IMG/VR virus record: IMGVR_UViG_3300010052_000209 | Coordinates: 1 to 24,951 of that record | Length of the DNA stretch: 24,951 nt | DNA from: a virus | Taxonomy: Duplodnaviria > Caudoviricetes | Reading direction: 5' to 3' (one strand) | In this document: positions 643 to 23,276 of the stretch, in pieces | How positions within the stretch are numbered: the stretch's first letter is position 1 | Layout: every line of letters starts with the position of its first letter | Made by a program: the position numbers and the translations under genes | The notes under the pieces: model-generated | Told to the model about the DNA's origin: nothing | The model's input: only the letters and a program-made list of their open reading frames with translations | Databases searched by the model: none

Positions 643-647
643 GGGAC

Positions 648-2404: not shown

Positions 2405-2914
2405 ATGGTGGAGAAGGCGACCGGGGGGCCGCGGAAGGTCCCAGCGGAGCGGGCGCCGAGGGCGTCCCAACCGACGAAGGGCGTGTGTTTCAGCGCCGCG
2501 GTGGCGCGACGGATCTGTGCGCGGCTGGCGGAGGGCGAGCCGTGGTCGAAGATCTGCAAGACCAGGGGAATGCCCGCCTATTCGACGCTGTACTCGTGGC
2601 AGAAGCAGCAGCCTGGGTTCGCGGAGCAGGTGGCGCAGGCGCGGCAGCAGGGCGCGGACTACTGCGCCGACCGGGCGCTGGAGGTGGCCGAGCGCACGAC
2701 CAAGGAGACGATCCAGCAGGACCGCCTGTTCGTGAGCACCCTGATGAAGCGGGCGGCCCTGATCGCACCGCAGACCTGGGGCGGGAAGGGTGGCGGCGCC
2801 AAGGACAAGCCAGCGAAGGTGGAGGTGGTCTTCCGCGTCCGCCACTTCGAGCGGGTGGTCGGGCCGGACGGCAAGGCGTTCGTCCGCGAGATCGAGCCGG
2901 AGGGCGAGGCTTGA
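2405..2914 (+). CDS. Terminase small subunit
   Basis: HTH-type ICARLAEGEPWSKICKTRGMPAYSTLYSW typical of Sf6-like TerS; GAGGA RBS; overlaps TerL start. Confidence 0.85.
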   Translation: MVEKATGGPRKVPAERAPRASQPTKGVCFSAAVARRICARLAEGEPWSKICKTRGMPAYSTLYSWQKQQPGFAEQVAQARQQGADYCADRALEVAERTTKETIQQDRLFVSTLMKRAALIAPQTWGGKGGGAKDKPAKVEVVFRVRHFERVVGPDGKAFVREIEPEGEA

Positions 2915-4314
2915 GCGCGGCGAAATCCAAGGCGAAGTCCAAGACGGGGACGAAGGCCGGCGCGAGCGCGCCCGAGGTCGTCGCCGAGCCCATGCACAAG
3001 CTGCCGCTTGAGTGGCGGCCGCGGCCTTACCAGGTGGACCTGTGGGAGGCGCTGCTGGGCGGTGTGCGGCGGGCCGACGTGGTGGCGCATCGCCGGTGGG
3101 GCAAGGACGAGGTGGCGTTGCACTGGGCGGCCTGGGCGGCGTGGCAGCGGCCCGGGAGCTATTGGCATTTGCTGCCGGCGATGTCGCAGGGACGCAAGGC
3201 GATCTGGGATGCGGTGAACCCGCACACCGGCCGGCGGCGCATCGAGGAGGCTTTTCCGGACGTCATGCGGCCGACGTTCAATGAGAGCGAGATGCAGGTC
3301 GTTCTGGGCAACGGCTCGACCTGGCAGGTGTTGGGCTCGGACAATTACGACGGCCTGGTGGGCGCCTCGACGGCCGGGGTGGTGATGTCGGAGTGGGCGC
3401 TGGCGAAACCAGAGGCCTGGGCGCACATCCGGCCGATCCTGCTGGAGAACGACGGCTGGGCGCTGTTCCTGTGGACGCCCCGGGGGCGCAACCACGCGGC
3501 GCGGGCCTTCGAGAGCCGGAAGGGCGATCCGGAGTGGTTCTGCCTGAAGTCGCCGGCCACGGAGACCGACGTGTTCACGCCCGAGCAGCTGGCGCGGGAG
3601 AAGCGCGAGCTGATCGCCGAACTGGGCTCGGAGGAGGAGGGCGTGGCGCGGTTCGCGAGCGAGTACCTGGTGGACTTCGATGCGGCGGCTCCCGGCAGCT
3701 ACTACGCCAGTCTCCTGGGCGAGGCGGAGCGTGCGGGGCGCATCGGGCGCGTGCCGGTGGATCCGGCGTTGCCGGTCGACACCGCCTGGGACCTGGGCAT
3801 CGACGACTATACGGCGGTCTGGTTCTTCCAGCAGGCCGGGCGCGAGGTGCGGGTGGTCGACTATTTCGAGACCAGCGGGGAGGGCCTGCCGGCCATGGTT
3901 CGCCGCGCGATCGGCGAGCGGCCCTATCTGTGGGGGACGCACCACCTGCCGCACGACGTGATGGTGCGGGAGCTGGCGAGCGGGCGATCGCGATACGAGA
4001 CGTTGCAGTCGCTGGGGCTGACCCGCATCAGCGTCGGGACGGCGACGGATCCCGAGGAGCGGGTGAACGCCGCGCGCCTGATGATCCCCACCTGCTGGTT
4101 CGACGCCGAGCGTTGCGCCGCCGGGCTGGAGCGGTTGCGGGCCTATCGCAAGCGGTGGAACCGGGCGACGCACAGCTATGGCGGGCCGCTGCACGACCAG
4201 GCCAGCCATGGCGCTGATGCGTTCGGGGAGTTCGCGCTGAACCGCAGGGGGGCGACGACGGCGCGTGAGCCCGGCCGGCGGGCGGCGCACGGCGCGCTTT
4301 CGTGGATGAGCTGA
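2911..4314 (+). CDS. Terminase large subunit
   Basis: PRPYQ, Walker A VAHRRWGKD, Walker B VVMSEW, TPRGRN, nuclease motifs AWDLGIDD, LPHD, SHGADAF. Start TTG 2911 (TTGA overlap) or ATG 2992. Confidence 0.93.
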   Translation: MSAAKSKAKSKTGTKAGASAPEVVAEPMHKLPLEWRPRPYQVDLWEALLGGVRRADVVAHRRWGKDEVALHWAAWAAWQRPGSYWHLLPAMSQGRKAIWDAVNPHTGRRRIEEAFPDVMRPTFNESEMQVVLGNGSTWQVLGSDNYDGLVGASTAGVVMSEWALAKPEAWAHIRPILLENDGWALFLWTPRGRNHAARAFESRKGDPEWFCLKSPATETDVFTPEQLAREKRELIAELGSEEEGVARFASEYLVDFDAAAPGSYYASLLGEAERAGRIGRVPVDPALPVDTAWDLGIDDYTAVWFFQQAGREVRVVDYFETSGEGLPAMVRRAIGERPYLWGTHHLPHDVMVRELASGRSRYETLQSLGLTRISVGTATDPEERVNAARLMIPTCWFDAERCAAGLERLRAYRKRWNRATHSYGGPLHDQASHGADAFGEFALNRRGATTAREPGRRAAHGALSWMS

Positions 4315-4586: not shown

Positions 4587-5056
4587 ATGAGCATCGACAA
4601 AGCCTTTGCCAGCTTCGCCAACAAGACGGCGAAGGTTACCGGCAGCCCTTGGACCTTCGGGGTGTGCTTGCTGCTGGTGATCCTGTGGGGCGGGAGCGGG
4701 CCGGTGTTCGGCTTCTCCGAGACGTGGCAGCTGGTGATCAACACCGGGACCACGATCATCACCTTCCTCATGGTGTTCCTGATCCAGAACACCCAGAACC
4801 GCGACGCCGAGGCGATGCAGGCGAAGCTGGACGACCTGATCCTCACGTCGGCGGCGGCGGAGAACGACTTCGTCGGCATCGAGCGGATGACCGAGAAGGA
4901 GCTCCAGGCGTTGCACGAGCGATGCGTCGAGCGGGCGAAGGCGCACGAGGAGCTGCACGCCAAGGTGCGGGACGAACTCGAGACCCGCGCGGCCAAGCGG
5001 CGGAAGCCTGCCGCGCGCAAGGCGCCGGCCCGCAAGAGCCCGGCGCGGAAGGCCGC

Positions 5057-5060
<4 letters not shown>
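4587..5060 (+). CDS. Low-affinity iron permease family (Fet4-like) membrane protein
   Basis: Signature WQLVINTGTTIITFLMVFLIQNTQNRD..AMQAKLDDLI; Lys/Ala-rich tail. Confidence 0.88.
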
Positions 5061-7153
<2,093 letters not shown>

Positions 7154-7363
7154 GGCCGTTGGGACCGCGGCATGCCGGGTCTCGCGGTGGGGTACGGTCA
7201 AGCGGGGCCTCCTGTTCAGGCGCGCGCCCAGGAAGCCGCATGCGGGTGACCGCCGCCCTAAGCTTGGCTGCGGCAAATCGACGTGACAGGGGCCGGGGCG
7301 CGCTCGACGGGCGGCGCCGATTGTCGCAGGGTCTGCGAACACACCGGCCAAGGAGCGACGACG

Positions 7364-7789
7364 ATGATCCGCAAGGCGAACGCAGTCTGGCAGGGCACGG
7401 GGCGCGATGGGACGGGCGCGCTGAGCTCTCAGTCCGGCGTGCTGAAGGAGACCCCGTACAGCTTCAAGACCCGGTTCGAGGACAGTCCGGGGACGAACCC
7501 CGAGGAACTGCTGGCTGCGGCGCACGCCGGCTGCTTCACGATGGCCCTGGCCTTCGCGATCCAGCGGGAAGGCTTCACGCCGCAGGAACTGTCGACCGAG
7601 GCGGCGGTGTCGCTGGACCAGGACGGCGCGGGTTTCAAGATCACGCGCTCGGCGCTGACGCTGCGGGCCAACGTGCCGGGGCTGAGCGAGGCGAAGTTCC
7701 GGGAGCTGGCCGAGGCGGCGGAGAAGACCTGCCCTGTGTCGCGCGTGCTGAACGCGGAGATCACGCTGGACGCGCTGTTGGAAGGGTAG
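7364..7789 (+). CDS. osmC: OsmC family peroxiredoxin
   Basis: MIRKANAVWQG, YSFKTRFE, GTNPEELLAAAHAGCF, CPVS; AGGAG RBS. Confidence 0.93.
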   Translation: MIRKANAVWQGTGRDGTGALSSQSGVLKETPYSFKTRFEDSPGTNPEELLAAAHAGCFTMALAFAIQREGFTPQELSTEAAVSLDQDGAGFKITRSALTLRANVPGLSEAKFRELAEAAEKTCPVSRVLNAEITLDALLEG

Positions 7790-7805
7790 GCGCGCGCGGC
7801 GCGAT

Positions 7806-7858
7806 TGTTCTTGATTTGTTCTTGACATCCGCGCGCGAATTTGAGAGAGTTCAGTCAG
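7806..7858 (+). promoter_or_regulatory. 53-bp promoter cassette copy 2 (LexA box 7807-7821, TTGACA 7822-7827)
   Basis: tgttcttgatttgttcttgacatccgcgcgcgaatttgagagagttcagtcag. Confidence 0.85.
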
Positions 7859-7919
7859 GGTCGACAACTGCGCTCCGGATGTCATCGGTCAGCCCGATGC
7901 GCCAAAGCGCCGAAGGTGA

Positions 7920-7964
7920 GTTCTTGAGTTGTTCTTGATTGCGCCGAGGCGCCCGGGGTAGCGT
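7920..7964 (+). promoter_or_regulatory. LexA box (7920-7934) with -35 TTGATT and -10 TAGCGT upstream of a membrane gene
   Basis: GTTCttgagttGTTC directly followed by TTGATT-N18-TAGCGT. Confidence 0.65.
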
Positions 7965-7996
7965 CGGTCCCGCGCCACCGGGCTAGGGGCAACATC

Positions 7997-8431
7997 TTGA
8001 GAAGGCCGATTTTACGGGCTGCCGTGGCCACGATCCTTTTCGCGGGTGGAGCGCTTCATTCTCTCTACGAGCTTTGGAGCGGGCTTCGCTTGCTAGAGCT
8101 TTGGGGGCCAGGTGCGTTGCCTCTGTTCCTGCTGGGAGTCGTGATGTGGGCCCTTCCGGCGGGGCTGGTCGCCTCGTTCCTGTTCTGGAGATCGGCGGCA
8201 AAGTCGCGAGGATGGTGCGGCTTATTCTTGAGAGGCGGCGCGGGGATGTGTGGGCTCCTGGGCGCGGCCTTCCTGGGCTTCATGATCTGGAATTGGTCCT
8301 CCACTGAGCAGGCCGTGGAGTGGGACGACATCGTGAGCTTGCTTGGGGCGCCCGCTCTGCTGCTGGGCGCTTGGCTGCTGTCGGCGCCCCTTAGAAGCGG
8401 CAGCGGGCATGCTCACGAACACTCGTCGTAG
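7997..8431 (+). CDS. Hypothetical 4-TM membrane protein
   Basis: Four hydrophobic segments; TTG start after AGGGG RBS; flanked by cassette copies 2 and 3. Confidence 0.7.
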   Translation: MRRPILRAAVATILFAGGALHSLYELWSGLRLLELWGPGALPLFLLGVVMWALPAGLVASFLFWRSAAKSRGWCGLFLRGGAGMCGLLGAAFLGFMIWNWSSTEQAVEWDDIVSLLGAPALLLGAWLLSAPLRSGSGHAHEHSS

Positions 8432-8506: not shown

Positions 8507-8650
8507 CGTTGAGGACTACGCCTGAAGCGCCGCGGATGCGGGGCTGAGGCGCGAGAGACGCCTTCCAATCTTTTGTCGATGCGGCCTTTGCGGGCCGCCT
8601 CCCACCCGCCGGGCTCGCTCGCGCGGGCCTTAACCCATGGGGCCAAGCCT

Positions 8651-10528
8651 TTGTCCGACGACGATATTCTTGAAGAGGCCAAGGCGGCCTTCCAGCGCGC
8701 GGCCGACGCGGAAGCCGAGAACCGGCGCGAGGCGCTGGACGACCTGCGCTTCGCCCGGCTGGGCGAGCAGTGGCCCGAGCGGGTGCGGCGCGAGCGGGAG
8801 ATGGAGGGGCGCCCGGTCCTGACGATCAACCGGCTGCCGGCCTTCATCCGGCAGGTGGTCAACGATGCGCGTCAGAACAAGCCGGCCATCATGGTCCACC
8901 CGGTGGACGGCGTGGCGGATCCGCAGACCGCCGAAGTGTTCAACGGCCTGGTGCGGCACATCGAACAGAGCTCGGACGCCGAGGTGGCTTATGACACGGC
9001 CCTGGATTTCGCGGTGACCTCGGGCGTCGGCTATTTCCGCATCAACACCCGCTATGCGGGGGACGACGGCTTCGACCAGGACATCGCCATCGAGCGGGTG
9101 GCGAACCCGTTCGCGATCTACGGCGATCCGGAATCCGTGGCCGCCGACAGCAGCGACTGGAACTGCGCCTTCGTGGTCGACAGCCTGCCGCGCGCGGCGT
9201 TCGAGGCGCGCTGGAAAGGCGCGCAGGCGGTGGACTGGGCCAGCGACGACCTGGGGCAGTCCGGCGGCCCGGCCTCGGACGGCGACCGGGTGATGGTGGC
9301 CGAGTACTGGAAGCGCGAGCGGGTGAGCCGCACGATCCTGGCGCTGTCGGACGGCCGGGTGGTGGAAGAGGGTCTATACAAGGCGCAGAAGTCGATGTTC
9401 GACGCCCTGGGCGTGACGCCCGTGGGACGGCCGCGGCAGACGGCGAGCCACAAGGTGACCCAACGGATCCTGACCGGCGCCGAGGTGCTGGAGACCGTCG
9501 ACTGGGCGGGGCGGTTCATCCCTATCGTCCCGGTCTATGGCGAAGAGCTGATGGTGGATGGGCGCCGGCGGCTGCGCAGCCTGGTGCGCGACGCCAAGGA
9601 TCCGCAGCGGATGTTCAACTACTGGCGCACCACCTCGACCGAACTGGTGGCGCTGGCGCCCAAGGCGCCGTTCATCGGGCGCAAGGGCGCGTTCGAGACC
9701 GACAGCGCCAAGTGGGCGACGGCCAACGTCCAGAGCCACGCCTACATCGAATATGACGGCCCTGAGCCGCCCATGCGCCAGCCGTTCGCGGGCGTGCCCG
9801 CGGGCGCGCTGCAGGAGGCGATGAACGCCGCCGACGACATGAAGTCGATCATGGGCCTGTTCGACGCCAGCCTGGGCGCCAGGTCGAACGAGACCTCAGG
9901 CCGCGCGATCATGGCGCGGCAGCGGGAGGGGGATGTCTCGACCTTCCACTACATCGACAATCTGAGCCGCTCCATCCGGCACGCCGGCCGGATCCTGCTG
10001 GACCTGATCCCCAAGGTCTATGCGACGGCGCGCGTCGTGCGCGTTCTGGGGCCGGATGGAGCGGCGGCGTCGGTGGGCGTCGCGCCGGGCGGCCAGGCGA
10101 AGGGGGCCGAGCCGTTGAAGGCGCTGGGCCGGATCTACGACCTGGGGGCGGGCAAGTACGACCTGACCGTTCGCTCGGGGCCGAGCTTCACCAGCCGCCG
10201 GGAAGAGGCGGCGACCCAGATGATCGAGCTGATCCGGGCCTACCCGCCCGCGGCGCCGCTGATGGGCGACCTGCTGGCGCGGAACCTGGACTGGCCCGGC
10301 GCCGAGGAGATCGCGCGCCGGCTGGCGGCGCTGCTGCCGCCGCAGGTGAAGGGCGGGGCGCCCGAGGTCGAGCAGGCCAAGGCGCAGATGGCGCAGCTGG
10401 CCCAGGCGCTGGCGGCGGCGCAGGCCGAGATCGCGAAGATCAGGCAGGACCGGACGCACGAGGCGCGGAAGCTGGAGATCAAGGCCTTCGAGGCCGAGAC
10501 CAATCGGATGAAGGCGGCGCAGCGCTGA
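8651..10528 (+). CDS. P22-like portal protein
   Basis: DDLRFARLGEQWP, RPVLTINRL, IPIVPVYG, VRDAKDPQRMFNY, SNETSGRAIMARQREGD, GKYDLTV..GPSFTSRREE. Start inferred at TTG 8651. Confidence 0.9.
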   Translation: MSDDDILEEAKAAFQRAADAEAENRREALDDLRFARLGEQWPERVRREREMEGRPVLTINRLPAFIRQVVNDARQNKPAIMVHPVDGVADPQTAEVFNGLVRHIEQSSDAEVAYDTALDFAVTSGVGYFRINTRYAGDDGFDQDIAIERVANPFAIYGDPESVAADSSDWNCAFVVDSLPRAAFEARWKGAQAVDWASDDLGQSGGPASDGDRVMVAEYWKRERVSRTILALSDGRVVEEGLYKAQKSMFDALGVTPVGRPRQTASHKVTQRILTGAEVLETVDWAGRFIPIVPVYGEELMVDGRRRLRSLVRDAKDPQRMFNYWRTTSTELVALAPKAPFIGRKGAFETDSAKWATANVQSHAYIEYDGPEPPMRQPFAGVPAGALQEAMNAADDMKSIMGLFDASLGARSNETSGRAIMARQREGDVSTFHYIDNLSRSIRHAGRILLDLIPKVYATARVVRVLGPDGAAASVGVAPGGQAKGAEPLKALGRIYDLGAGKYDLTVRSGPSFTSRREEAATQMIELIRAYPPAAPLMGDLLARNLDWPGAEEIARRLAALLPPQVKGGAPEVEQAKAQMAQLAQALAAAQAEIAKIRQDRTHEARKLEIKAFEAETNRMKAAQR

Positions 10529-10575: not shown

Positions 10576-11262
10576 ATGGCAAAACCCCTGGGAGCCATGC
10601 GCGCGGCGGCGAGCCAGCGCATCGCAGGAAACGAGCTGCAGCTGCGGGGCGCCACGGCGCCGCGAACGGGCGGCGGCGAGATGTTCCCAAATCCATTCAC
10701 GACGCCGCCGCAGGTCGATCCGCGGAGGACCTATCAACCACCATCGGCGCGAGATCGGATTGGGCCGCCGCGGAAGGGAACGCATGTGACTGTCCGCGCT
10801 TACGACATTCCCAACCTGCCTGGGCCGCAGCAGCACATGTATGTCGAGTACGATGACGGGCGCGAACAGTTGATCGCCCGCGGTGGGCCTTCGGCCGAAG
10901 GAGATACCTTTGTCCCGAGCAGCTTGGCGGGACGTTTGCGCGTCGTGGGCGGAGTTGTGCCCGCGACGCAGAGCAAGGACTACGGCAAGGGCGAGAGGGT
11001 CGTTTTTCGGGGCTTCGCGCCGGATATGTCGGCGCAGGAAGCCGCCGAACCCGCGCGGCGCAACGGCCGGGCGCTTCAGGAGCAGCCGCGACAGTATGGA
11101 ATCTGGCGGGACAATTCGAACAGTTTCGCTGCCGATGCGGTGGAGCCGCTATTCGGTATCCGGCCGGGTTCCGCGTGGCGGACTCCAGGCCACGGCAATA
11201 CGCTAACGAAAGCGCGTGGCGTGCACTCTTGGTACGTGCCGGCCAGAGAGTCGATGCGCTAG
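10576..11262 (+). CDS. Putative cargo/toxin with a permuted papain-like (NlpC/P60) fold
   Basis: AGGAGG RBS; His motif HMYVEY..RGGP and Y....NSNSFA resemble permuted papain-like enzymes with Ser at the Cys position; N-terminal leader similar to ORF 12754. Confidence 0.55.
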   Translation: MAKPLGAMRAAASQRIAGNELQLRGATAPRTGGGEMFPNPFTTPPQVDPRRTYQPPSARDRIGPPRKGTHVTVRAYDIPNLPGPQQHMYVEYDDGREQLIARGGPSAEGDTFVPSSLAGRLRVVGGVVPATQSKDYGKGERVVFRGFAPDMSAQEAAEPARRNGRALQEQPRQYGIWRDNSNSFAADAVEPLFGIRPGSAWRTPGHGNTLTKARGVHSWYVPARESMR

Positions 11263-11621
11263 CCCGCTCTGGGCGGTTGATTGAGCGCCCGCGCCAGCAG
11301 CAGGTAGAACCCCAGCAGTGGGATGCCGATCAGAAACACCATGAACGGCAACAGGAACATGAGGCCCATCGCGGCGATGTCCGAGGACTGCATCTCCCGA
11401 TTCACCACCCAACCCAGATAGATGGGCCACGCGAGCGGAGCGAGGATGATCGCCAGGTGCAGCGGCAGCGGGCCACGCGCCCGTAGCGCGGTGATCATCC
11501 ACCAGACCGACGCCAAGACGGAGGCCGAAAGGGTGGCAAGAGCCATGGCGTGGTCACCCAGCGCCACCGTCAGGCCCACGGCGGCGATATAGGACAGTCC
11601 CGGAAGCAGATAGATGCGCAT
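11259..11621 (-). CDS. Hypothetical 4-TM membrane protein (candidate immunity)
   Basis: Very hydrophobic 120 aa; convergent with ORF 10576, sharing a CTAG stop overlap. Confidence 0.7.
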   Translation of the reverse strand: MRIYLLPGLSYIAAVGLTVALGDHAMALATLSASVLASVWWMITALRARGPLPLHLAIILAPLAWPIYLGWVVNREMQSSDIAAMGLMFLLPFMVFLIGIPLLGFYLLLARALNQPPRAG

Positions 11622-11634
11622 CGCGGCTCGGTGT

Positions 11635-11649
11635 GTTCTGAATTTGTTC
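11635..11649. promoter_or_regulatory. LexA (SOS) box
   Basis: GTTCtgaatttGTTC, 13 bp upstream of the 11621 start codon and about 300 bp upstream of the scaffold gene. Confidence 0.7.
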
Positions 11650-11944
11650 CTAGCGTAGTCACCTAGCTCGCCAGCCGCAAGTCGGCAGAGCCGCGACTAC
11701 GGAAAGGGCGAGCGTCTACTGTACAGTGGCTTCCTGCCCGACGTCTCGGCCCAGCGCCTGACGAGGCGTCGGAGCCTTGAGCCGCGCCTCCGCTTCTGAT
11801 TTCGGCCCAGAGCGATCGAGGGCAGCCCGCACAAGGCGTGGGCCGAAGCCATCGTCGATGCGGCTTCACCCTCCTTTCCGACGTCGCGGACGCGGCCGTT
11901 CGAAGATCACGAGCGCCTTCAAGCGCACAAACCAAGGGAACATC

Positions 11945-12754
11945 ATGCAATACGAAGAGCCCGAGCTGATGGGCGACGACGCCGTGCGCGCCGAGCACGA
12001 AGGCCTGTTCGAGGCTGACGACGTGCTGGACGCGCCGGATACGTTCGAGGTCGAGCTCGATGGCGAGGTCCATACCCTGCCGATCGCGCTGAAGGGCGCG
12101 ATCCTGCGGCACGCGGACTATACGCGGAAGACCCAGGATCTGGCCGACCAGCGACGCGCGTTCGACGTCGAGCGCCAGGCCCTTGCCGACGATCGCCGAT
12201 CGGTTCGCGGCGCATCGGCCGATCGCGGCGTGCTGGCCGCGCTGGATCACCAGCTCGAGGCCTTCGCGGAGATCGATTGGCGCGTGCTGGGGCAGGAAGA
12301 TGCAGAGCGCGCCCGTGACCTGTGGGCCAGCTTCCAGGAGACCCAGGCGCTGCGGGACCAGTTCGCCTATGCGCTGGCCCACCATGAGAACCGCGAGGAA
12401 TTGCGCGCCGCCCGTGAGGCGGCCGAGGAGATGGCCGCGGCCGGCGCGCAGCTTCGCGAAGAGATCGACGGCTGGTCGCCGGAAGTGGCGGCCAAGCTGA
12501 TCGACTACGGCCAGGCTTTCGGGGTGACGCTGGAGGAGTTTGCCCAGATGGCCGATCCGCGCCTCTGGAAGCTGCTGCACCGGGCTTGGCGCGCCGACCA
12601 GGCCGAGCAGGGCGACGCCGACGCGCAGGCCGCCACTGTCCGCCCGGCCGTCACGGTTGGCGGCGGTGGTGGGACCACGGCGGGCATGCGCGACGAACTG
12701 GGGACGCGCGAGTGGATGCGCCGTCGCAACGCCCAGATGGCTGGAGGCCGCTGA
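11945..12754 (+). CDS. Capsid scaffolding protein
   Basis: Acidic, helical; VELDGE...L..ADYTRKTQDLA motif typical of podovirus scaffolds; between portal and coat. Confidence 0.8.
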   Translation: MQYEEPELMGDDAVRAEHEGLFEADDVLDAPDTFEVELDGEVHTLPIALKGAILRHADYTRKTQDLADQRRAFDVERQALADDRRSVRGASADRGVLAALDHQLEAFAEIDWRVLGQEDAERARDLWASFQETQALRDQFAYALAHHENREELRAAREAAEEMAAAGAQLREEIDGWSPEVAAKLIDYGQAFGVTLEEFAQMADPRLWKLLHRAWRADQAEQGDADAQAATVRPAVTVGGGGGTTAGMRDELGTREWMRRRNAQMAGGR

Positions 12755-13320
12755 TGGCGGGGCAGGGAAATCCGGCTCTCGGGCGCCTCACCCAGGCGGC
12801 CAATCGTGTGGTGGCCGACAACGCCAAGGCGTTTCGCCAACTCACCGGCGAGGGCCTGTCGCTGGAGGAGCGCGCCAAGCGCCCCTGGGACTTTCCGGCC
12901 AAGGAGGCGGTGACGCGTCGTATCGCGCAGGAGGAACTGGACCGCGCAGGGGGCGGCCACAACGACATCCGCGACGCGATGCGGCATGCTCAGTGGTCGC
13001 AGCGGACGGCGCAGGCCGTCGGGCCGCTGTATGCGGAGGTTGCTGGGATAGCGCACGAGGCGAAGAACCTCGCCGACAGCATCGCCAGCCACGGTACGCA
13101 CGGTCCCTACGACACAGTCGGACGCAATCCCATGCCGACGCCGGGCGAGACGATGAGCGAGAGCCTGATGGATCTGCGTAACAACGCCGAGGGACGACGG
13201 GCCGCGCGGGAAGGGCGGCCGATCGACATGCAGCGATTGCAGACGGCTCCAAAGCAGACCGTCATGGGCGCGCTTGTCTATCAGCCCCGGTCGGGGCTGA
13301 CGTTCTCGGCCCGCCGCTAG
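12754..13320 (+). CDS. Putative toxin with a DUF6973/Wnt-like (lipocone-type) domain
   Basis: Motifs HNDIRDAMRHAQWS, AHE, ESLMDLRNNAEGR (compare Wnt MNLHNNEAGR); TGATG-coupled to the scaffold gene. Confidence 0.65.
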   Translation: MAGQGNPALGRLTQAANRVVADNAKAFRQLTGEGLSLEERAKRPWDFPAKEAVTRRIAQEELDRAGGGHNDIRDAMRHAQWSQRTAQAVGPLYAEVAGIAHEAKNLADSIASHGTHGPYDTVGRNPMPTPGETMSESLMDLRNNAEGRRAAREGRPIDMQRLQTAPKQTVMGALVYQPRSGLTFSARR

Positions 13321-13406
13321 GGCGCGGGCGGCCCCGGGTAGTGGTTGGCGTCTTGCCAAGTTCACTCTCTGTTCGCATACTCAAGGTTGTTGAAGGGGAG
13401 TGGGCT

Positions 13407-13856
13407 TTGGCGTCGAGTATCGGAGACACGGGCAGCGGCGTGCCGCGCCGAGGGTTTCTGTCGCGAGCTCTGCGGTTCGCGGCCGGGCTGCTGGTCGGCG
13501 CGGCGTTCTTGCCTGGACTGTTCCTGCTCGATCTGGGAGCTGCATATGCGCTCTCGTCGACGCTATTGAGCGGACCGCGTGGCGACTCTGAGATGCGAGG
13601 CGCCGATGTCTCCGCGGCGGGCGGTGTGCGGCTGGATTTCAGCAACAAGACCCAAGCCTTGCACGTGGTGTGTCGTGATACCTGCGACGACCTAACGGTC
13701 AACGGCAACGCCAGCGGAGAAGTCGAGGTCCGTGACGTCAAGGGACGCCGGATCGTGGGGCGTGAACGCACACAGTTCCCGTCGCAATTGCTGCGCGCGA
13801 AGGCGTGGCTGATCGAGGGGCGGCCGTTGACGATCCGCGAGGGGGGATGGTCGTGA
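13407..13856 (+). CDS. Membrane-anchored protein with CxxxCDDL motif (candidate immunity 1)
   Basis: N-terminal TM and CRDTCDDL; TTG start after GGGGAG. Confidence 0.6.
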   Translation: MASSIGDTGSGVPRRGFLSRALRFAAGLLVGAAFLPGLFLLDLGAAYALSSTLLSGPRGDSEMRGADVSAAGGVRLDFSNKTQALHVVCRDTCDDLTVNGNASGEVEVRDVKGRRIVGRERTQFPSQLLRAKAWLIEGRPLTIREGGWS

Positions 13857-14326
13857 AGTTCACCGCCTTCCGAGCTGGTCTTCTGACCGGCCTGATGATG
13901 GTCCTCGGCCTCGCGGGGATAATCTGGTGGTCGAGCCACGGGCAGCCGACCGCGCCTTACGCCTTTGAAGGGACAGTCGTCGGCGCAGACGTCGGTCGTC
14001 ATGGCGGCCGTCAGGTCGAGGTGACAGACCGGGGCTATGCGATAGTGCGGCAGAGCTGCAACGGTGCATGTGACGACCTTTCGTACAGGCGTTCCGCCGG
14101 CGACAGCGTTGTCGCTGTCCGCGTCCTCGACGCGAACGGGAGCTGTATTGTCTGCAGTGAGGGCATTTACGTGACGGGGGGCATGCCTTCCGCGAGCAGC
14201 ATCCGCGTGGGCGGCGCCGACAAGCTGGAGGCGCGCAGCGGTTCCGTGGCGCGACAGCCTGATGGCTCCATGCGGGTCCAAGGCGAGGAAACGGTGCTCG
14301 GCCCCGCGCCAGGCCCGAAGCCCTGA
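13847..14326 (+). CDS. Membrane-anchored protein with CxxxCDDL motif (candidate immunity 2)
   Basis: N-terminal TM and CNGACDDL; overlaps the upstream stop. Confidence 0.65.
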   Translation: MVVKFTAFRAGLLTGLMMVLGLAGIIWWSSHGQPTAPYAFEGTVVGADVGRHGGRQVEVTDRGYAIVRQSCNGACDDLSYRRSAGDSVVAVRVLDANGSCIVCSEGIYVTGGMPSASSIRVGGADKLEARSGSVARQPDGSMRVQGEETVLGPAPGPKP

Positions 14327-14617: not shown

Positions 14618-15808
14618 ATGGCCAATACCATCCTGACCGCCACCGCGGTGACGCGGGAGGCGCTGCGCGTACTGCACCAGAAGCTGAACTTCGTGGGCAC
14701 GATCACGCGCGACTATGACGAACGCTTCGCCCAGCAGGGCGCCAAGATCGGCGACACCCTGAAGATCCGCCTGCCGAACCAGTACACGGTGCGCACCGGC
14801 GCCGCGCTGGACGCCAAGGACCTGGCTGAAAGCTCGGTCGACCTGAAGGTGGAGAAGCAGAAGGGCGTCGACCTGAACTTCACCTCCACCGACCTGACCC
14901 TCAGCCTGGACGACTTCTCGGAGCGGGTGATCGAGCCGGCCATGAGCGTGCTGGCGGCCAGCATCGAGGCTGACGCCATGAGCATGTACAAGGACGTCTG
15001 GAGCCAGGTGAGCGGCACGACGAACTTCGCCAAGGTGCTGCAGGCGCGCAAGGTGCTGGTCGACAATCTGGCGCCGCTGAACGCCCGGACCTGCAATCTG
15101 AACACCCAGGACAACGTCGACATGGTCAACGACCTGAAGACGCTGTTCAACGACAAGAGCACGGTCAGCCGCCAAAACCGCGAAGGCTATATGGGCCGCA
15201 CCGCCGGCTTCGACTTCATGGAGAACACGCTGTGGCCGGCGCATACGCGTGGCGCGGCGAACGGCAGCTATACGACCAACACGACGGTAGGCACGCTGCC
15301 GCTGCTGGGCCCCGCAGTGTCGCAGATCACGGTCGCCTCCGGCACGGGGGCGATGAACAAGGGTGACGTCTTCACGATCGCCAACGTCTTCCGGGTTCAC
15401 CCCGAAACCAAGCAGTCGACGGGTATCCTGCAGCAGTTCGTCGTCGCCGCCGACTATGTGGGCGGCGCGGGCCAGGTGTCGATCGCACCGGCGATCGTGC
15501 TGTCGGGCGCCGCGCAGAACGTGGTCATCCCGACCACGTCGAGCACCGCGTCGCTCGTGTTCCACGGCACGGCGAGCGCCGCCTATGGCCTGTCGATGGC
15601 CTATCAGAAGGGCGCGTTTGCCTTTGCGACCGCCGACCTGATGCTGCCGCGCGGCGTCGACTTCGCCAGCCGTGAGGTGTTTGACGGTGTGTCGATGCGT
15701 GTCGTGCGCCAGTACGACATCAACGCCGACAAGTTCCCGTGCCGGCTGGACGTGCTGTACGGGTTCAAGACGATCCGTCCGCAGCTGGCCTGCCGCCTGG
15801 CGAGCTAG
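14618..15808 (+). CDS. Major capsid protein (P22 coat gp5 family)
   Basis: MANTILT...ITRDYDERF...AKIGDTLKIRLP, LSLDDFSERVIEP, AFAFATADL, RLDVLYG; AAGGA RBS. Confidence 0.93.
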   Translation: MANTILTATAVTREALRVLHQKLNFVGTITRDYDERFAQQGAKIGDTLKIRLPNQYTVRTGAALDAKDLAESSVDLKVEKQKGVDLNFTSTDLTLSLDDFSERVIEPAMSVLAASIEADAMSMYKDVWSQVSGTTNFAKVLQARKVLVDNLAPLNARTCNLNTQDNVDMVNDLKTLFNDKSTVSRQNREGYMGRTAGFDFMENTLWPAHTRGAANGSYTTNTTVGTLPLLGPAVSQITVASGTGAMNKGDVFTIANVFRVHPETKQSTGILQQFVVAADYVGGAGQVSIAPAIVLSGAAQNVVIPTTSSTASLVFHGTASAAYGLSMAYQKGAFAFATADLMLPRGVDFASREVFDGVSMRVVRQYDINADKFPCRLDVLYGFKTIRPQLACRLAS

Positions 15809-15918: not shown

Positions 15919-16545
15919 ATGGCGATCACGACCTACGCGCAGCTGCAGGCTGCCGCGGCGAACTGGCTCGTGCGTGCGGACCTGACGGCGCGCATCCCTG
16001 AATTCATCACCCTCGCTGAAGCGCGGCTGAACCGCGTGCTGCGGACGCGCCTGGCCGAGACGGAGGTCGCGCTCACCGCGACCATCGGCGGCCGCTCGAT
16101 CCCCTTGCCGATGGGCTTCACGGAGCCTCTAAGGCTCTGGATCGAGCGGAACGGCGAACGGGTGGAACTTCCGTTCATCGAGACCACGCTGATGGGCGCA
16201 TCCTCGTTGCGGGGCGAACCGCAGGCCTGGACCGTCGATGGCGCGTCGCTGCGTTTCGATCGGCCTTGCGATGAAGCCTATGGCGTCGTGCTGCGGATGC
16301 TGACGGCGTTCGCGCTGTCGGACGCCGTCCCGACCAATGGACTGCTGACCCAGGCGCCCGATGTCTACCTGTTTGCGACCCTCAGCGAGGCTGGACCCTT
16401 CCTGCGCGATGCCGACCTGGCCGGCGTCTACGAGGGCAAGCTGACCCGCGCCATTGAGGAACTGAACGGCAAGGACGCCCGCAGCCGCGCGCCGCGCACG
16501 CTGGGCACCGAGCTGGCCGAACTGATGCTGGAGTGCCGATCGTGA
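15919..16545 (+). CDS. Head-tail adaptor / tail tubular protein A-like
   Basis: MAITTYAQLQAAAANWLVRADLTARIPEFITLAEARLNR...TNGLLTQAPDVYLFATL, typical of podovirus adaptors following the coat gene. Confidence 0.78.
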   Translation: MAITTYAQLQAAAANWLVRADLTARIPEFITLAEARLNRVLRTRLAETEVALTATIGGRSIPLPMGFTEPLRLWIERNGERVELPFIETTLMGASSLRGEPQAWTVDGASLRFDRPCDEAYGVVLRMLTAFALSDAVPTNGLLTQAPDVYLFATLSEAGPFLRDADLAGVYEGKLTRAIEELNGKDARSRAPRTLGTELAELMLECRS

Positions 16546-17802: not shown

Positions 17803-18551
17803 TGGGCGGGCGGCTGCGCGGCTTGGTTGCGCAGGCGATGGATGGACGAAAGCGCATCGTCAGAAATCGTGTCGTCTACGCCCAAGCGTACACTAGCGGT
17901 GCCGGATCGACGCCGGCGCAAGCCGTCACCGTGCTTGCCTCCACCTATCTCGTGGGGGCTGGCGCGAACGGGGGCGGCGCCGGCGCCGGCGCCGGCGCGG
18001 ACGGCGGCGGCGGCGGCGGGGCGGCATACCAAGAGTTCATCCTCGCGCCCGGACAAGTGATCAACTACGTCATCGGGGTCGGAGCGCCGGGCTCAGTGCA
18101 GAACCCTGGAGTCGGCGGCGACACCGTTGTGACAGGCCCTACCGGTAGGACAGTTCGCGCTCAGGGAGGCCAAGGGCGTATCGGCGGTCGTGGGAGTGGC
18201 GGCAAGTTCAACTACAAGGGCGGCGACGGAGGTACCTTTGCGGGAATTGGTGTGGGTGCGGGCGGCGCCCCCGGGGCCGCAGAAGGAGGAGATGGCCTGA
18301 ATGGCGGGGGCGGGAGTTCCGTTTCCGGCGGTGGCGGCGGGGGTGGTGCCAACCCGGGAGTCCCATTGGGCACTTTGACAGCCTTTGCGCCCTCCTTCGG
18401 CCGACAAGGAACTGGCAGCGGCACTGTCTTTCCGGCCGCGCCCTACGGGGGAGGTGGTGGAGCGTCCAGTGACGGAGCTGGTGGTGCCAACAAGGGCGGT
18501 GCGGGTGCGGATGGTGTCGTCGTCGTTGTGATGATCGATGTAGATAGGTGA
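17802..18551 (+). CDS. Glycine-rich tail fiber-associated protein
   Basis: VGAGANGGG...GGGGG, GAGADGVVVV glycine-rich domain; TGATG coupling. Confidence 0.75.
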   Translation: MGGRLRGLVAQAMDGRKRIVRNRVVYAQAYTSGAGSTPAQAVTVLASTYLVGAGANGGGAGAGAGADGGGGGGAAYQEFILAPGQVINYVIGVGAPGSVQNPGVGGDTVVTGPTGRTVRAQGGQGRIGGRGSGGKFNYKGGDGGTFAGIGVGAGGAPGAAEGGDGLNGGGGSSVSGGGGGGGANPGVPLGTLTAFAPSFGRQGTGSGTVFPAAPYGGGGGASSDGAGGANKGGAGADGVVVVVMIDVDR

Positions 18552-18916
18552 TCGAAGCGGAACAGTCGTTTGGAACGGCAATAGATAGACTTGGCCCCGC
18601 CCACGCCCCATCGCCAATCTGCGGTCTTCGGCAAGATGACATATGCTCGCTTGCCCATTGCGTCTGCCAAAAGCGCGATTGAAGTGTCGGCGGAGACTAC
18701 TGCGTCAAGATTTTCTATGCTTTAGTGAGCGTTTTCGAAATCCAACGCGCCCGTATCTTTTGGGCGCTGGCTCATGCCCAATGCGCATAGCCTTTTCGCA
18801 AGATCATCTGGCAAGCGAAATCCATTCCGATCGCTGCCAGAAGGCATGATCCCGATTCCGCTGCGAGAGTATGAACCAGAAAGTTGGGATTTAGAGGGTA
18901 GTTCTGCCGTCAACAT
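18552..18916 (-). pseudogene. Remnant of a (TPR-)glycosyltransferase family 9-like gene
   Basis: Single reading frame ...GIGIMPSG...PKDTGALDFENAH*SIENLDAVVSADTSIALLADAMGKRAYVILPKTADWRWG...RLFRF matches the GT9-type C-terminus (DLVISVDT.VAHLAGALGKP...DWRW...RLFRQ); in-frame TAA at 18722-18724. Confidence 0.7.
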
Positions 18917-19345
18917 TCGAAAAAATACAATAAATAATTATTTATATAATAGATCTATTGATGTTTATAAATATAATTATATTGATTAAATCTCATAATT
19001 TATGAAAGGTCGATATGGGGGCGGGGGTGATTTCAATTCCATTTGGTGAAATATATTTGTATATGGCGAGCGAATTGAATTTGATATCCGAACCTTTGCT
19101 CGGTTAGTACAATCAATTGTCCTATTTTTTATCTACCCGTTCCGGGGATTAAAAATTTTGGCTGCAGAGGTCCGCCCGGGATTTTGCGTCGAAACTCGTA
19201 ATATTTCCATCCTTTAAAGAATTTCTATATATTTAATAGAACGATGCAAATGCATGTTATAGCTTTACAATATCAGATGATATTCAAATGTGCGCCGAAG
19301 AAGTTATTCAATTTGCTGCATGTCACCATCGGCGACTAGAATAAT
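18915..19345. other. AT-rich island without a long ORF
   Basis: Runs such as aaaaatacaataaataattatttatataat within otherwise very GC-rich DNA. Confidence 0.8.
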
Positions 19346-19704
19346 TGCGCGTTCGCCGTAGTCTTTGGGCTACATCCACCTAGCCTAACACCGTACTAGC
19401 GTTTTAGGCCACATCTTGTGGCTAGGTTCGGGCCCCCCCGATGGCGCGGATCGCGCGTCTATTTACTTCTAGACGCACTCCTGCCGCAGTCAGCTTTCCG
19501 GCGACAAGGCCCGGACCGTCAGGCGCCCACACAGCCGGTACGTTCGCCACTGGACCTCGTTCCGCGAGCTCTGCCGGCTGCCGCTGAAGCGACGGCACGA
19601 CGCTGACATGCCTGGGATCCGGGCAGACTCCAACTCCACCTCGTGACTTTGCACGCGCCGTCGCATCGGCGGGTGGTCATTTCGCACATTCAAAGAGAGG
19701 CCAG

Positions 19705-20019
19705 ATGGAAAAGGCATTCATGCCCGTGGACAACGCCACGGTGATGGTCGGCGTATCGACGTCGTGGATGGCGGGAGCGATCAAGGGGCGGCCCAGCGGG
19801 CCGTTCCAGCTTCGGCTGTACAATGCGCTTGCGAGCGCGGTGTTCTACCGGGTCGGCGACTCCAGTGTGCAGGCCACCAGCGCCGACGTTCCGCTGCCGC
19901 CGGGCGCGGTGGAGATCATCACGGTCCGCAATGCCGACGCGCGGCCGGACACCCACATCGCGTTCGTGGCCGCGTCCGGGAGCGGCTCCGTGTACGCCTC
20001 GACCGGCAATGGGCTCTAG
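19705..20019 (+). CDS. Hypothetical small virion/tail protein
   Basis: GAGAGG RBS; beta-rich 104 aa; 2 bp before the next gene. Confidence 0.7.
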   Translation: MEKAFMPVDNATVMVGVSTSWMAGAIKGRPSGPFQLRLYNALASAVFYRVGDSSVQATSADVPLPPGAVEIITVRNADARPDTHIAFVAASGSGSVYASTGNGL

Positions 20020-20021
20020 GG

Positions 20022-21692
20022 ATGGTGCTGCATGTCGGGACGAGGGGGCCTGGGCACCTCTCGCGCACGGCGGCCGGCGCTCCCGGGGAGGTCTTCGGGA
20101 CCTCGGCGGCACGCTACAGCGTCATGGGGACCGGCCTCCGAACGCCGGTGCACATGGGCAGTGAGGCCGGCGCGTCGATGCAGACGAACGGCAATGGCAC
20201 GACGGACTATCTGTACCAGGTGACACGCCAGGCCTTCGGCTCGCCTGATTACGTCACCACGGATCATCTGTTCGGCTTCTGCAACTTCTCGCACGGCACG
20301 TCGGGCCCTGAGGCCAGCGGCGGCTGCGACATCACGATCGACGCCTTCAAGGTCTATGTGAACGGCGCCTGGGTTTCGTCTACCGACGTGCCGAAGGTCG
20401 TGCCTGCAGGGGCCGGGGTTCTGCTGAGCGGGTTCTCAGGGCTGAGCATTCCGGCCAACGCGGTGGTGCATTGGATCTGCAAGTTTCACTACAGCGCCGG
20501 CGCCGCGAAGATCCCGGTGTTGTCGGCCAGTGCGTTCTGGAATCCCGGCGGTGTCTCGGACGCCGCGCGGGGGTTCACGACCGCGGGCGGCTACACGACC
20601 GAAATTCCAAGCGATGGTCCGGGCACGGTGCCGACCTGGGCGAACGGGACCGGCGGCCGATCCTGGGGGCCGTCGATGTGCTTCGGAAAGGGCGGGGATG
20701 GTCGGCCTGCCGTCGTCATCGTCGGCGATAGCATCGGCTATGGCGTCGCCGGCGATACCCAGGTGGCCTGTTGGACGGCCCGGCGCGAGTACGGAATGGT
20801 GGGAGTTGGCCTGGACAGCAATGTCGGGGCCAAACGCCTAGGCTATCTGAACCTCAGCGTCCCGGGACAGAGCCCGATCGATGCCGTTGGGGGATGGCGC
20901 TACCGTCCGCGCTGGGAGCGGAAGCTGGACCTCGTGAAGCAGGTGACGCTGCTACAAGGCAAGGCGCCGTTCGACATCATCCTGAGTGAGCACGGCGAGA
21001 ACAGTTGCTCGGCAGCGAAGACGCTGGTGTCCGGCATGCCTGCCTACTACGCGACCTTGCAGGCGGAGTGGCCTGGGCTGCCGATCTACCAGCACGAGCT
21101 CCTCGCGCGCTGCAAGTCGACGGACCAGTTCCGAAGCTTCGCGGGGCAGACGCTGGATCGGAACAGTGACGGCTCGCAGGATACGAACTCCCTGCAGTTT
21201 GCGCTGGGGCACGCCTACAACGGCGGCGTCAACATGGGCGACAAGTGGCTGTTCCAGGCCGCGTTGCAGCCCGGTGGCGCTATCCGTGACGCCGGTTGGA
21301 TCGCTGGCACGATCCCGACATGGCGATATGGCAGCTATGACACGGGGGATGGCCGCGACCGGTTGGCCCTCCGCACATTTGCGACGACGACGACAGGACC
21401 CTACAACGGCGGCACGGCGAGGATGCCGCTGGCGGCTGCGGCCACGCCGGGCATGCACCTTTGCATGGATGGCCAGCCGAACGGCTATGTCGGTGTCTCG
21501 CGTGTCGCGGGGACAGGCGGTCTCGAGGCTGAGATCGTGCCGAACAGCTTCTCGCCCGGCAGTGTCGCCACGGGCGCGAACGTCTGGGAGATCCCGCACG
21601 ATGCGGGTGGTCCGCACCCCAGCGGCCTGATGCATCGCGACGTCTACTCCGCTGCTTTCGTCGACTGGAAGATCGCCCAGGGCTGGGTGTGA
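20022..21692 (+). CDS. SGNH/GDSL hydrolase-domain tail spike-like protein
   Basis: Block I VVIVGDSIGYG, block II NLSVPG, block III EHGEN, block V DAGGPHPS. Confidence 0.78.
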   Translation: MVLHVGTRGPGHLSRTAAGAPGEVFGTSAARYSVMGTGLRTPVHMGSEAGASMQTNGNGTTDYLYQVTRQAFGSPDYVTTDHLFGFCNFSHGTSGPEASGGCDITIDAFKVYVNGAWVSSTDVPKVVPAGAGVLLSGFSGLSIPANAVVHWICKFHYSAGAAKIPVLSASAFWNPGGVSDAARGFTTAGGYTTEIPSDGPGTVPTWANGTGGRSWGPSMCFGKGGDGRPAVVIVGDSIGYGVAGDTQVACWTARREYGMVGVGLDSNVGAKRLGYLNLSVPGQSPIDAVGGWRYRPRWERKLDLVKQVTLLQGKAPFDIILSEHGENSCSAAKTLVSGMPAYYATLQAEWPGLPIYQHELLARCKSTDQFRSFAGQTLDRNSDGSQDTNSLQFALGHAYNGGVNMGDKWLFQAALQPGGAIRDAGWIAGTIPTWRYGSYDTGDGRDRLALRTFATTTTGPYNGGTARMPLAAAATPGMHLCMDGQPNGYVGVSRVAGTGGLEAEIVPNSFSPGSVATGANVWEIPHDAGGPHPSGLMHRDVYSAAFVDWKIAQGWV

Positions 21693-21743: not shown

Positions 21744-23276
21744 ATGAAAATTCCATTCGAGTTGCCGCCCGGGCTGAGCGGCGACGATACGACCTATGCC
21801 GCCACCGGCCGCTGGGCGGACGGCTCCAACGTGCGCTTCCGGCTGGGGCGGGCCGAGACCATCGGTGGGTGGGAGCGGCTGATGCGGGAGTCCCTGAGCG
21901 GCGTGTGCCGTGCGGTGTTTCCGTGGACCGACAACAGGGGCGTGCTGAACATCGGCTTCGGCACGCACTCGAAGCTGCAACTGTGGCAGGGCGGGGCGCT
22001 GTTCGATATCACGCCGACGGCGGGCTTCACGGCCGGTGCGATCGATGGGGCAGGCTCGGCGGGCTACGGCACTGGCGCCTACAACGTCGGCGGCTACGGT
22101 CAGCCCTCGGAGACGGACTATTTTCCGCTCACCTGGTCGTTCGGGGCGTGGGGGCAGCAGCTGCTGGCCAGCCCGCGCAACCAGACGATCTTCGCCTGGA
22201 CCAACAACACCGGCACGCCGGCCGCCGCCCTGGCAAATGCGCCGGCGCGGGTCACCCATATGCTGGTGGCGCCGCTGAACGGCGGCTACCAGGTCTTCGC
22301 GCTGGGTTGCAACGAGGAGGTCTCCGGGACCTTCAATCCGCTCTGTATCCGCCATTCCTCGATCCGAGAGAACACGGTCTGGAGCACCGCTGCGAGCGGT
22401 TCGACAGCGCGGGAATACATCCTGACCGGCGGCGGCCGGATCGTGGCCGGGCGGATGTGCGGGCCGTGCATGCTGGTGTGGACCGGTGATGCGCTGTTCC
22501 TGGGGACGTTCGTCGGGGCGCTGAACCAGCCGTGGCGCTTCGATCGCGTCGGCCGCAACTGCGGGCTGATTGGGCCGAATGCCGCGGTGATCGTGGGGCA
22601 GACGGCGTATTGGGTGAGCCCCGACCGTCAGTTCTATCGCTATGTCGTGGGCGGCGAACCCGAACCGCTGCCTTGCCCCGTCCGGCGGGATTTCGCTGAG
22701 GAATTGGCGGCGAGCCAGGGTGACAAGGTCGTGGCCTCGTCGAACGCGGAATTCTCCGAGATCCGCTTCGACTACCCCGACCGGCGCGACGGCTACGAGA
22801 ACAGCCGCTACCTCGCACTGGCGGTGGCCGGACCGGATGCAGGGGCGTGGCACCGCGGCGTGATGGCGAGGACGGCGTTCGTCGACGCAGGGCCTTCGGC
22901 CTATCCGATTGGCGCGACTGCGGACGGGGCGGTCTTCCTCCATGAGCGAGGGCGTTCGGCCGACGGCGGCAGCTTCCGCTGGTTCATCGAGACGGCGGAC
23001 GCCTACCTCGACCCCGAGACGACGCTGCTGGTGCGCGGCCTATGGCCTGACTTCAAGGATCAGGTGGGCCCCGTGACAGTGGATGTCGCGGCGCGAATGC
23101 ATCCCCAGGCGGCCGACGTGGCGATGGCCAGCGCGGCCATGGCGCCCGGCGCCGCACGTGCCGACCTGCTCACGAGCGGTCGGCTCTTCCGCGTGCGTTT
23201 CTCAGGCGAGAGCGCGCCGACGGGCTGCCGCATCGGGACGCCGACCTTCGACGTCGCCCAGACCGGCCAGCTCTGA
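21744..23276 (+). CDS. Tail hub / packaged-DNA stabilization protein (gp10, tail tubular B-like)
   Basis: WADGSNVRF...IGGWE, propeller-like repeats, NCGLIGPNA; size and position typical. Confidence 0.75.
   Translation: MKIPFELPPGLSGDDTTYAATGRWADGSNVRFRLGRAETIGGWERLMRESLSGVCRAVFPWTDNRGVLNIGFGTHSKLQLWQGGALFDITPTAGFTAGAIDGAGSAGYGTGAYNVGGYGQPSETDYFPLTWSFGAWGQQLLASPRNQTIFAWTNNTGTPAAALANAPARVTHMLVAPLNGGYQVFALGCNEEVSGTFNPLCIRHSSIRENTVWSTAASGSTAREYILTGGGRIVAGRMCGPCMLVWTGDALFLGTFVGALNQPWRFDRVGRNCGLIGPNAAVIVGQTAYWVSPDRQFYRYVVGGEPEPLPCPVRRDFAEELAASQGDKVVASSNAEFSEIRFDYPDRRDGYENSRYLALAVAGPDAGAWHRGVMARTAFVDAGPSAYPIGATADGAVFLHERGRSADGGSFRWFIETADAYLDPETTLLVRGLWPDFKDQVGPVTVDVAARMHPQAADVAMASAAMAPGAARADLLTSGRLFRVRFSGESAPTGCRIGTPTFDVAQTGQL

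Follow-up and report, generated by a model that had tools for sequence, protein, structure and literature searches.

Toxins of the MuF type, grouped under the 'phage DNA packaging system', are described as products of head-module genes lying by the portal gene, with variable C-terminal domains and adjacent immunity candidates, and their loading into the capsid has been proposed for prophage remnants as well (PMC5576092; PMC3482391). The published proposal of capsid-mediated toxin delivery draws on gene context and on the precedent of SPP1 gp7 (PMC3482391; PMC5576092). Here we describe a comparable locus in a viral genome of the Caudoviricetes (IMG/VR record IMGVR_UViG_3300010052_000209, positions 1 to 24,951; all 24,951 nucleotides are hereinafter called the window). 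Its two toxin-like open reading frames, ORF A (10576-11262, plus strand, 228 aa) and ORF B (12754-13320, plus strand, 188 aa), share a short N-terminal leader and lie among the head genes of a phage-derived element. We consider this a likely case of head-module polymorphic toxins in a probably domesticated phage element, MuF-like in its working without being a member of the MuF family.

The gene position is that of the MuF toxins, namely next to the portal or terminase in the head module. As an earlier note on this DNA had it, both ORFs are head-module genes: ORF A starts 47 bases past the stop of the P22-like portal gene (8573-10528, plus strand; PF16510, E-value 3e-200), and the ATG of ORF B overlaps the stop of the head scaffolding gene (11945-12754, plus strand; phrog_3927, E-value 6e-27). 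The note's claim that a MuF domain is missing likewise agrees with our searches of Pfam and PHROG, which returned no MuF match for either protein, the custom MuF3 and MuF4 profiles being outside this search; the N-terminal regions are 44-67 residues long. The chassis is of the podovirus type, whereas 86% of phage MuF proteins are siphoviral (PMC5576092). In further contrast to MuF, what the proteins have in common is a motif some 20 residues long, the genes occupy three slots instead of one, the partners are membrane-anchored and the element is apparently vertically inherited.

Domesticated phage structures offer a second comparison. Gene-transfer agents (GTAs) and tailocins similarly consist of domesticated phage structural genes that keep to a conserved neighbourhood, include lysis genes and are not regularly accompanied by an integrase or replication gene; the present element differs in its P22-like head with a short tail, in retaining a CI-like repressor and in having polymorphic cassettes inside the head operon. 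The T4 internal-protein signal, the encapsulin cargo-loading peptides and the PVC leaders are also short terminal peptides on unrelated cargo, a likeness in general description. In the literature searched, most subscription journals being outside its scope, neither the element nor the leader nor DUF6973, the domain of ORF B, was found described. With its wide chromosomal distribution, apparently intact head, candidate tag of about 20 residues on eight unrelated domains and cognate partner genes, the element would allow a direct test of capsid-mediated delivery. Should the tag load cargo, the tail-based phage-derived weapons would be joined by a head-based route, and the tag would serve as a minimal signal for packaging; should it not, the element would still be one that the print covered by that search does not describe.

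The shared N-terminal leader

The leader spans L5-T27 of ORF A (10588-10656, plus strand) and L9-T31 of ORF B (12778-12846, plus strand), where the earlier note had placed it, and aligns without gaps, with eight identities over 23 positions. Taken alone, the pair is marginal: its ungapped BLOSUM62 score of 31 is reached by 258 of 10000 shuffles and by two of 435 pairs of gene starts from the window (one of which is perhaps the A/B pair itself), and pairwise BLASTP of A against B does not report the alignment. The statistical support that the note had called for came instead from relatives. A profile built from 15 B-family leaders alone gives ORF A 16.8 bits, as against 4.4 bits for the best of 1474 control N-termini, which come from the same loci, include many orthologues and hence are not independent. 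The same profile recovers three further A-family proteins (24.3, 18.4 and 10.3 bits) and an alpha/beta-hydrolase (25.9 bits). Judged from these sequence comparisons, the leader common to the two ORFs is real once the relatives are included. It is predicted as a helix at residues 5-24 of ORF A, with low confidence (predicted local distance difference test, pLDDT, of about 60), and as two helices at residues 7-22 and 24-31 of ORF B (pLDDT 86-91).

Across the relatives, the single conserved leader of the earlier note gives way to at least two motif types and a minor third. We counted these in 111 non-redundant proteins, with profiles that include their own training members, after excluding 15 partial-domain matches and, from the B set, a row whose start had been miscalled (L170). 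M1, approximately L-x-x-L-R-x-x-A-x-x-x-[IV]-A-x-N-A-x-x-L, is found in 16 of 26 B-family proteins and two of five H13 proteins but only four of 67 A-family proteins; this leader is not universal. M3, L-[ST]-x-x-[ED]-x-A-A-L-x-x-A-P-[RK]-[RK], occurs in 54/67 A, 5/26 B and 1/4 Ntox44 proteins, and M4 in seven A-family proteins. In all, M1 or M3 is present on eight unrelated C-terminal families. The motifs sit in Pro/Gly-rich leaders, M3 at 10-60 residues from the protein start, and M3 is also found on genes unlinked to the cluster.

Several searches recovered the motifs across family boundaries. With an M3 profile made from A proteins alone, scores of 13-30 bits are obtained for proteins of the B and Ntox44 families, and the two highest-scoring 'controls' proved to be new cargo genes of the post-scaffold slot. 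Among 23118 six-frame ORFs, all six matches of at least 14 bits outside the known families are plus-strand gene starts directly after the scaffold or coat gene, and later blind matches fell on further families, the HExxH genes and the glycine-zipper-like proteins. One A and one B protein have a 65-column leader in common, with a top cross-family score of 200 (the next pair scores 79). The genus-wide search with M1 returned six strong matches, all of them training members, and 12 weak ones, of which one (G504) is a real orphan cassette and 11 are noise-like. Identical leader residues are specified by the same codon within a genome in only 11 of 29 cases for M1 and six of 15 for M3, compared to 72-78% for portal orthologues between species; this indicates that the leaders are not recent DNA copies. 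Selection on the leader as protein would be the simplest reading of this difference, though the cargo genes also have weaker codon bias.

Some further observations bear on the leaders. The A-family genes of one clade (L129 of G002, L177, L178 and L236) have a third leader type, LL-x-P-x-DL...W, and the B gene of L129 has a stretch similar to it by eye, though with no profile score. Two post-scaffold mini-ORFs keep the leader and have lost the domain (L127:16364-16525 and L192:18010-18180, both on the minus strand). A glycine-zipper-like family of 13 members occupies the post-portal slot next to an opposite-strand gene family of 16 members in ten loci (L001, L004, L116, L121, L154, L155, L159, L161, L163 and L203); it is without M1 or M3 there, while M1 is present in the member P0072.

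Toxin-like domains and their membrane partners

In ORF A the leader is followed by a Pro-rich linker and a domain that we assign, with modest scores, to the permuted papain fold (NlpC/P60; the TseH/LRAT/PPPDE-like class), with His87 preceding Ser181 at the nucleophile position. The structure model (pLDDT 85) matches TseH with Z 7.5 (root-mean-square deviation, rmsd, 4.2 over 128 aligned residues) and a deSUMOylase with Z 7.4 (rmsd 3.1 over 114); the eight best fold matches, TseH first, are papain-like or peptidase entries, all below Z 8. Neither Pfam, PHROG and PDB sequence searches nor the viral fold library (at E <= 0.001) gave a match. As in TseH and Tox-Act1, effectors of type VI secretion systems (T6SS), a His near the start precedes the nucleophile motif and the partner is membrane-associated (PMC12994826); unlike these, ORF A has Ser rather than Cys as the nucleophile. 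None of the 67 A-family proteins shows Cys: Ser is present in 58 by pattern, and of the other nine, direct reading of the sequence gives Ser in seven, and two end short of the motif. Given Ser for Cys in every readable protein, activity may differ from that of the Cys enzymes or be absent. Tox-Act1, itself a permuted NlpC/P60 toxin, is described as toxic only in the periplasm (PMC12994826), and ORF A is a candidate envelope-acting toxin.

ORF B contains the helical domain DUF6973 (PF22322, E-value 9e-9, 35.4 bits against a cut-off of 27). BteO ranks first among its fold matches (Z 8.0, rmsd 5.5, 109 aligned residues, 23% identity) and comes from the BteO-BtiO pair of the Bacteroides fragilis T6SS (PMC12541434); Foldseek and the PDB sequence search did not recover this match. 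The conserved columns of the B family, R77-H78, H101-E102, D140 and N144, display an RH..HE..D motif, and the 24-residue spacing of the first two pairs is the same as that of the essential R143-H144 and H167-E168 of BteO (PMC12541434), while the later Asp residues are aligned by eye only. BteO differs in being T6SS-delivered, with an N-terminal transmembrane (TM) helix and an OmpA-like immunity protein, whereas ORF B has a soluble leader and a partner of another family (PMC12541434). In the account of BteO, toxicity is confined to the periplasm and the fold is described as non-enzymatic (PMC12541434); ORF B is a candidate periplasm-acting toxin. Of the earlier note's 'unrelated enzyme-like' C-termini, the lack of relationship holds, and 'enzyme-like' is uncertain for both, for A on account of the Ser at the Cys position and for B on account of its nearest solved fold. 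Neither ORF shows a signal peptide or TM stretch by eye.

Each toxin-like family is linked to an adjacent partner family of its own, a co-variation seen as gene linkage only. ORF A is followed by a convergent gene for a small multi-TM protein (11259-11621, minus strand), its candidate immunity partner; a gene of this kind comes after A in 28 of 34 loci and does so in either slot. ORF B is followed by two paralogous single-TM proteins with a Cys-paired outer domain (13341-13856, with an uncertain start, and 13853-14326, both on the plus strand), candidate immunity partners belonging to a family that follows B in 16/17 loci; the QxCxxxCDD signature, noted in the second paralogue, is invariant in 16 of 16 aligned sequences. 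The hydrolases neighbour genes with two or three TM segments (14/14), and Ntox44 another membrane family (3/4). These patterns point to envelope-acting toxins with membrane immunity proteins as the likely nature of the pairs. The membrane partner of Ntox44 is without explanation under this reading; we take Ntox44 to be a predicted RNase, and Pfam lists it only as a bacterial toxin.

The cassettes exchange between sites: A and B genes are found in post-portal, post-scaffold and post-coat slots, which elsewhere hold two alpha/beta-hydrolase families, Ntox44 and glycine-zipper-like proteins, and in more distant loci pesticin and lysozyme domains. All 32 locus records retrieved with A or B, some of them duplicates, adjoin genes of the cluster or other cassette genes, and several lineages lack any cassette. 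A fragment of a second A-family gene, visible in the sequence between the convergent TM gene and the scaffold (approximately 11668-11760, plus strand; partial A-domain profile match 'WIN|20'), is likely the scar of a cassette replacement. Shared motifs on unrelated domains, family-specific membrane partners and the swapping of slots together bear out the polymorphic-toxin architecture proposed in the earlier note, with the qualification that not all cassettes have a shared N-terminal part. One locus (L217/L237) has the scaffold gene twice, a pair of A genes, a single B gene and an additional coat fragment, which reflects either a tandem duplication or an assembly chimera.

A further toxin-like family with an HExxH motif is encoded in 29 of 197 genomes of the genus (e.g., L292:2075-2650, minus strand; L323:1432-2040, plus strand) along with a partner gene that appears lipoprotein-like, by eye, in 24 of 30 loci. 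Three copies (G437, G186 and G304) directly precede the portal gene and share an N-terminus of another kind. We considered a link between intactness of the HExxH gene and presence of the portal (11 intact and two broken with portal, eight intact and five broken without, three partial copies left out) and did not find it convincing.

What the cassettes might do

The architecture itself, i.e. a motif on unrelated domains, exchange of slots, family-specific partners and a conserved neighbourhood, is directly observed. We tentatively favour, at somewhat below even chances, the reading that A and B are interchangeable toxin-like cassettes of a likely domesticated P22-type cluster whose leader helix loads them into the particle for delivery to the envelope of competitors. 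On induction, the cassettes would be co-expressed with the head genes, the post-scaffold gene overlapping the scaffold stop; the leader helix would dock on a head component during assembly; the particle would release its cargo through the short tail into the periplasm of a competitor; and the membrane partners would protect the producer and its kin. The partners are oriented towards the membrane or periplasm, and the toxin-like proteins have no export signal, a combination that fits attack from outside. The chassis, detailed below under the GTA alternative, also speaks for this reading, with core genes under purifying selection, portal and nozzle divergence that tracks murA, a tRNA-Thr at the site and, unlike phage VvAW1, no large ejection gene.

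Several observations weigh against this. The HExxH family is mostly found outside the cluster, with M1 or M3 in only six of 30 loci, and its presence does not track the portal (15/29 genomes, compared to 101/197 for the genus). Hence the earlier note's expectation for the leader profile holds as to diverse C-termini but not as to confinement to the cluster. The five genomes with a leader-bearing HExxH gene range from one with the cluster (G507), through one with the terminase and part of the portal (G504), one without the portal-to-coat genes (G249, described below) and one with a split terminase near a contig end (G264), to one with no portal or terminase match (G418). Many cassettes in the same slots are without M1, M3 or M4 (9/9 H14 hydrolases, 3/5 H13, 3/4 Ntox44, 5/26 B). 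M1 and M3 are not significantly alike as profiles (E-value 0.33), so that the link between them rests on hybrids such as L292 and P0072, both blind matches, in which M1 runs straight into the AL-x-x-AP-[KR][KR] end of M3. The leader type is not fixed by the chassis, as genes with M1 and genes with M3 are seen on similar chassis, in sister loci and even within one locus (L217), and M1, apart from its presence in two other loci, is mostly restricted to a single clade of 13; the agreement between co-resident genes is thus largely shared ancestry. No core protein resembles the motifs: M3 does not mimic the scaffold C-terminal helix at significance (E-value 0.18-0.32), nor any other core-protein terminus. 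The B leader, being predicted with high confidence, may simply pack on B's own domain. Finally, the intact motifs of the terminase, with four motif patterns in 22 of 22 full-length copies, fit DNA packaging equally well.

A bolder form of the head-loading reading, which we regard as doubtful, takes the element as a podophage domesticated throughout the genus, whose DNA-injection channel was lost and which became a capsid-based secretion system, with a short helical tag ending in AL-x-x-AP-[KR][KR] loading unrelated antibacterial proteins, including chromosomally unlinked ones, into the head for the periplasm of competitors. If so, the tag would amount to a transferable signal for loading proteins into P22-type capsids.

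It is possible, though unlikely, that the proteins are bacteriocins set free by lysis. The late operon would then do no more than express them and let the element's lysin release them, and the leader, Pro-rich and with a short helix, would act as a signal for uptake across the outer membrane. The unstructured N-termini of colicins are used in crossing the outer membrane of the target, and the Pro/Gly-rich leaders with short motifs, the envelope-located partners and a lysin under purifying selection would all suit such a role, as would the leader-bearing HExxH cassettes away from the cluster, including those where head genes are deleted or were not found. Yet the proteins are small (about 150-280 aa) and have no receptor-binding domain, and the A family is in head-module slots in every one of the 32 locus records. 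In G249 (L354, G249:C13), a single case, the terminase is kept, everything from portal through coat to adaptor is deleted, and the leader-bearing HExxH orphan is split. Locus L354 also has a truncated nozzle gene joined to the end of the ejection-like gene, and the lysin was not found there.

We also give little credence to the cassettes being hitch-hikers or addiction genes that act in the producer or its lysate, by stabilising the element or aborting infection, with the leader binding a chaperone, a protease or the protein's own domain. Other slots of the element do collect unrelated host and mobile genes, and the many motif-less cassettes, the well-ordered B leader and the independence of the HExxH family from the portal point in the same direction. 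However, membrane- or periplasm-facing partners of toxin-like proteins without export signals fit attack from outside, and one leader on unrelated folds argues against self-packing.

The conservation of the element itself leads to a quite improbable alternative, in which it is a GTA, with A and B as variable minor proteins of the virion that help to open the envelope of the recipient when DNA is delivered and kill only secondarily. The structural cluster is indeed conserved and apparently vertically inherited, and among the recurring flanking neighbours, those occurring once not being all annotated, none is an integrase or replication gene. Portal matches occur in 101 of the 197 genus genomes (one of them the unpublished G508), in 90 of them once, and in 43 of 401 genomes of the family. 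A murA-DUF2948-hisD-UPF0262 block lies within seven genes after the element in 30 of 49 loci with downstream sequence, a tRNA-Thr(ggt) is present in all 23 loci selected because they extend to murA, and at the left end host genes (cysE/DUF3126 or MFS/MarR) come within a few genes in 16 of 20 upstream loci. The core genes have median ratios of nonsynonymous to synonymous substitution (dN/dS) of 0.24-0.39 (150 pairs each, by simple counting), the lysin being among those under purifying selection, and portal and nozzle distances track those of murA (rho 0.67 and 0.84; coat only 0.27). The intact terminase and the pesticin and lysozyme domains in the same slots of more distant loci would also befit a GTA. 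Against it, the nozzle-to-lysin span (1.2-2.3 kb) has no ORF longer than 370 aa in 30 of 30 loci and so no large ejection-protein gene, where phage VvAW1 has a 10.9-kb gene at the corresponding position; as a weak test, two large ejection proteins of related prophages used as queries matched 0/5 and 1/5 genomes. Entry enzymes would not be expected to come with cognate partner genes or an Ntox44 domain, and several lineages do without any cassette. The features of the chassis, which count for the head-loading reading as well, suggest that the element is likely a domesticated prophage that lost its large injection proteins.

Very improbably, the leader is no more than a passive leftover, with a 5' end retained for the translation start alone while recombination swaps the C-terminal domains behind it: whole-leader swaps, lineage-linked leader types and the domain-deleted remnants in L127 and L192 speak for this, but divergence at synonymous sites and in the flanking linker has spared the motif residues, and M3, besides its presence on unlinked genes, lies at a distance from the start.

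Other genes of the element

The window as a whole is a P22/SU10-like podovirus module; two close loci are labelled Phenylobacterium sp., and the closest phage records are less than 50% identical. At its left end is the CI-like repressor (1-678, minus strand), with helix-turn-helix and S24 domains (Pfam HTH_3/Peptidase_S24, phrog_4), which is found in 17 of 20 upstream loci. The small (2405-2914; PF20901, phrog_1482) and large (2911-4314; phrog_2, with intact ATPase and nuclease motifs) terminase subunits follow, and past the cassettes come the P22-like major capsid protein (14618-15808; PF11651, phrog_283) and an SU10-type adaptor (15919-16545; PF24175), all on the plus strand. A virion structural protein of 510 aa (21744-23276, plus strand; phrog_3287, E-value 5e-45) is read as the tail nozzle from its position and size. 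The sole ejection-like gene (23324-24199, plus strand, 291 aa) has viral nearest clusters in the Atlas, the P22_gp7 cluster at 0.85 being a lead only, and the window closes with an M15 peptidase endolysin (24502-24951, plus strand; PF08291, phrog_894).

Between these genes lie variable stretches. The terminase-portal interval (4587-8431) holds host-like genes (an iron permease family member, a hybrid histidine kinase, OsmC and a membrane protein) and varies across the genus. An AT-rich stretch (18550-19450; GC content 44-46%, compared to about 68%) between a glycine-rich gene and the esterase pair has no convincing ORF, and other loci have glycosyltransferase- or methyltransferase-like inserts in its place. 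The pair itself (19705-21692) consists of a small gene (104 aa) and an SGNH-esterase-like one (556 aa); the family of the former recurs in several slots before varied large proteins, possibly marking exchangeable tail-spike modules. More distant P22-like clusters, with portal identities of 42% (L152, in G219) and 67% (L138, in G006), occupy the same tRNA-Thr/murA site, which suggests that the site may also be an integration hotspot.

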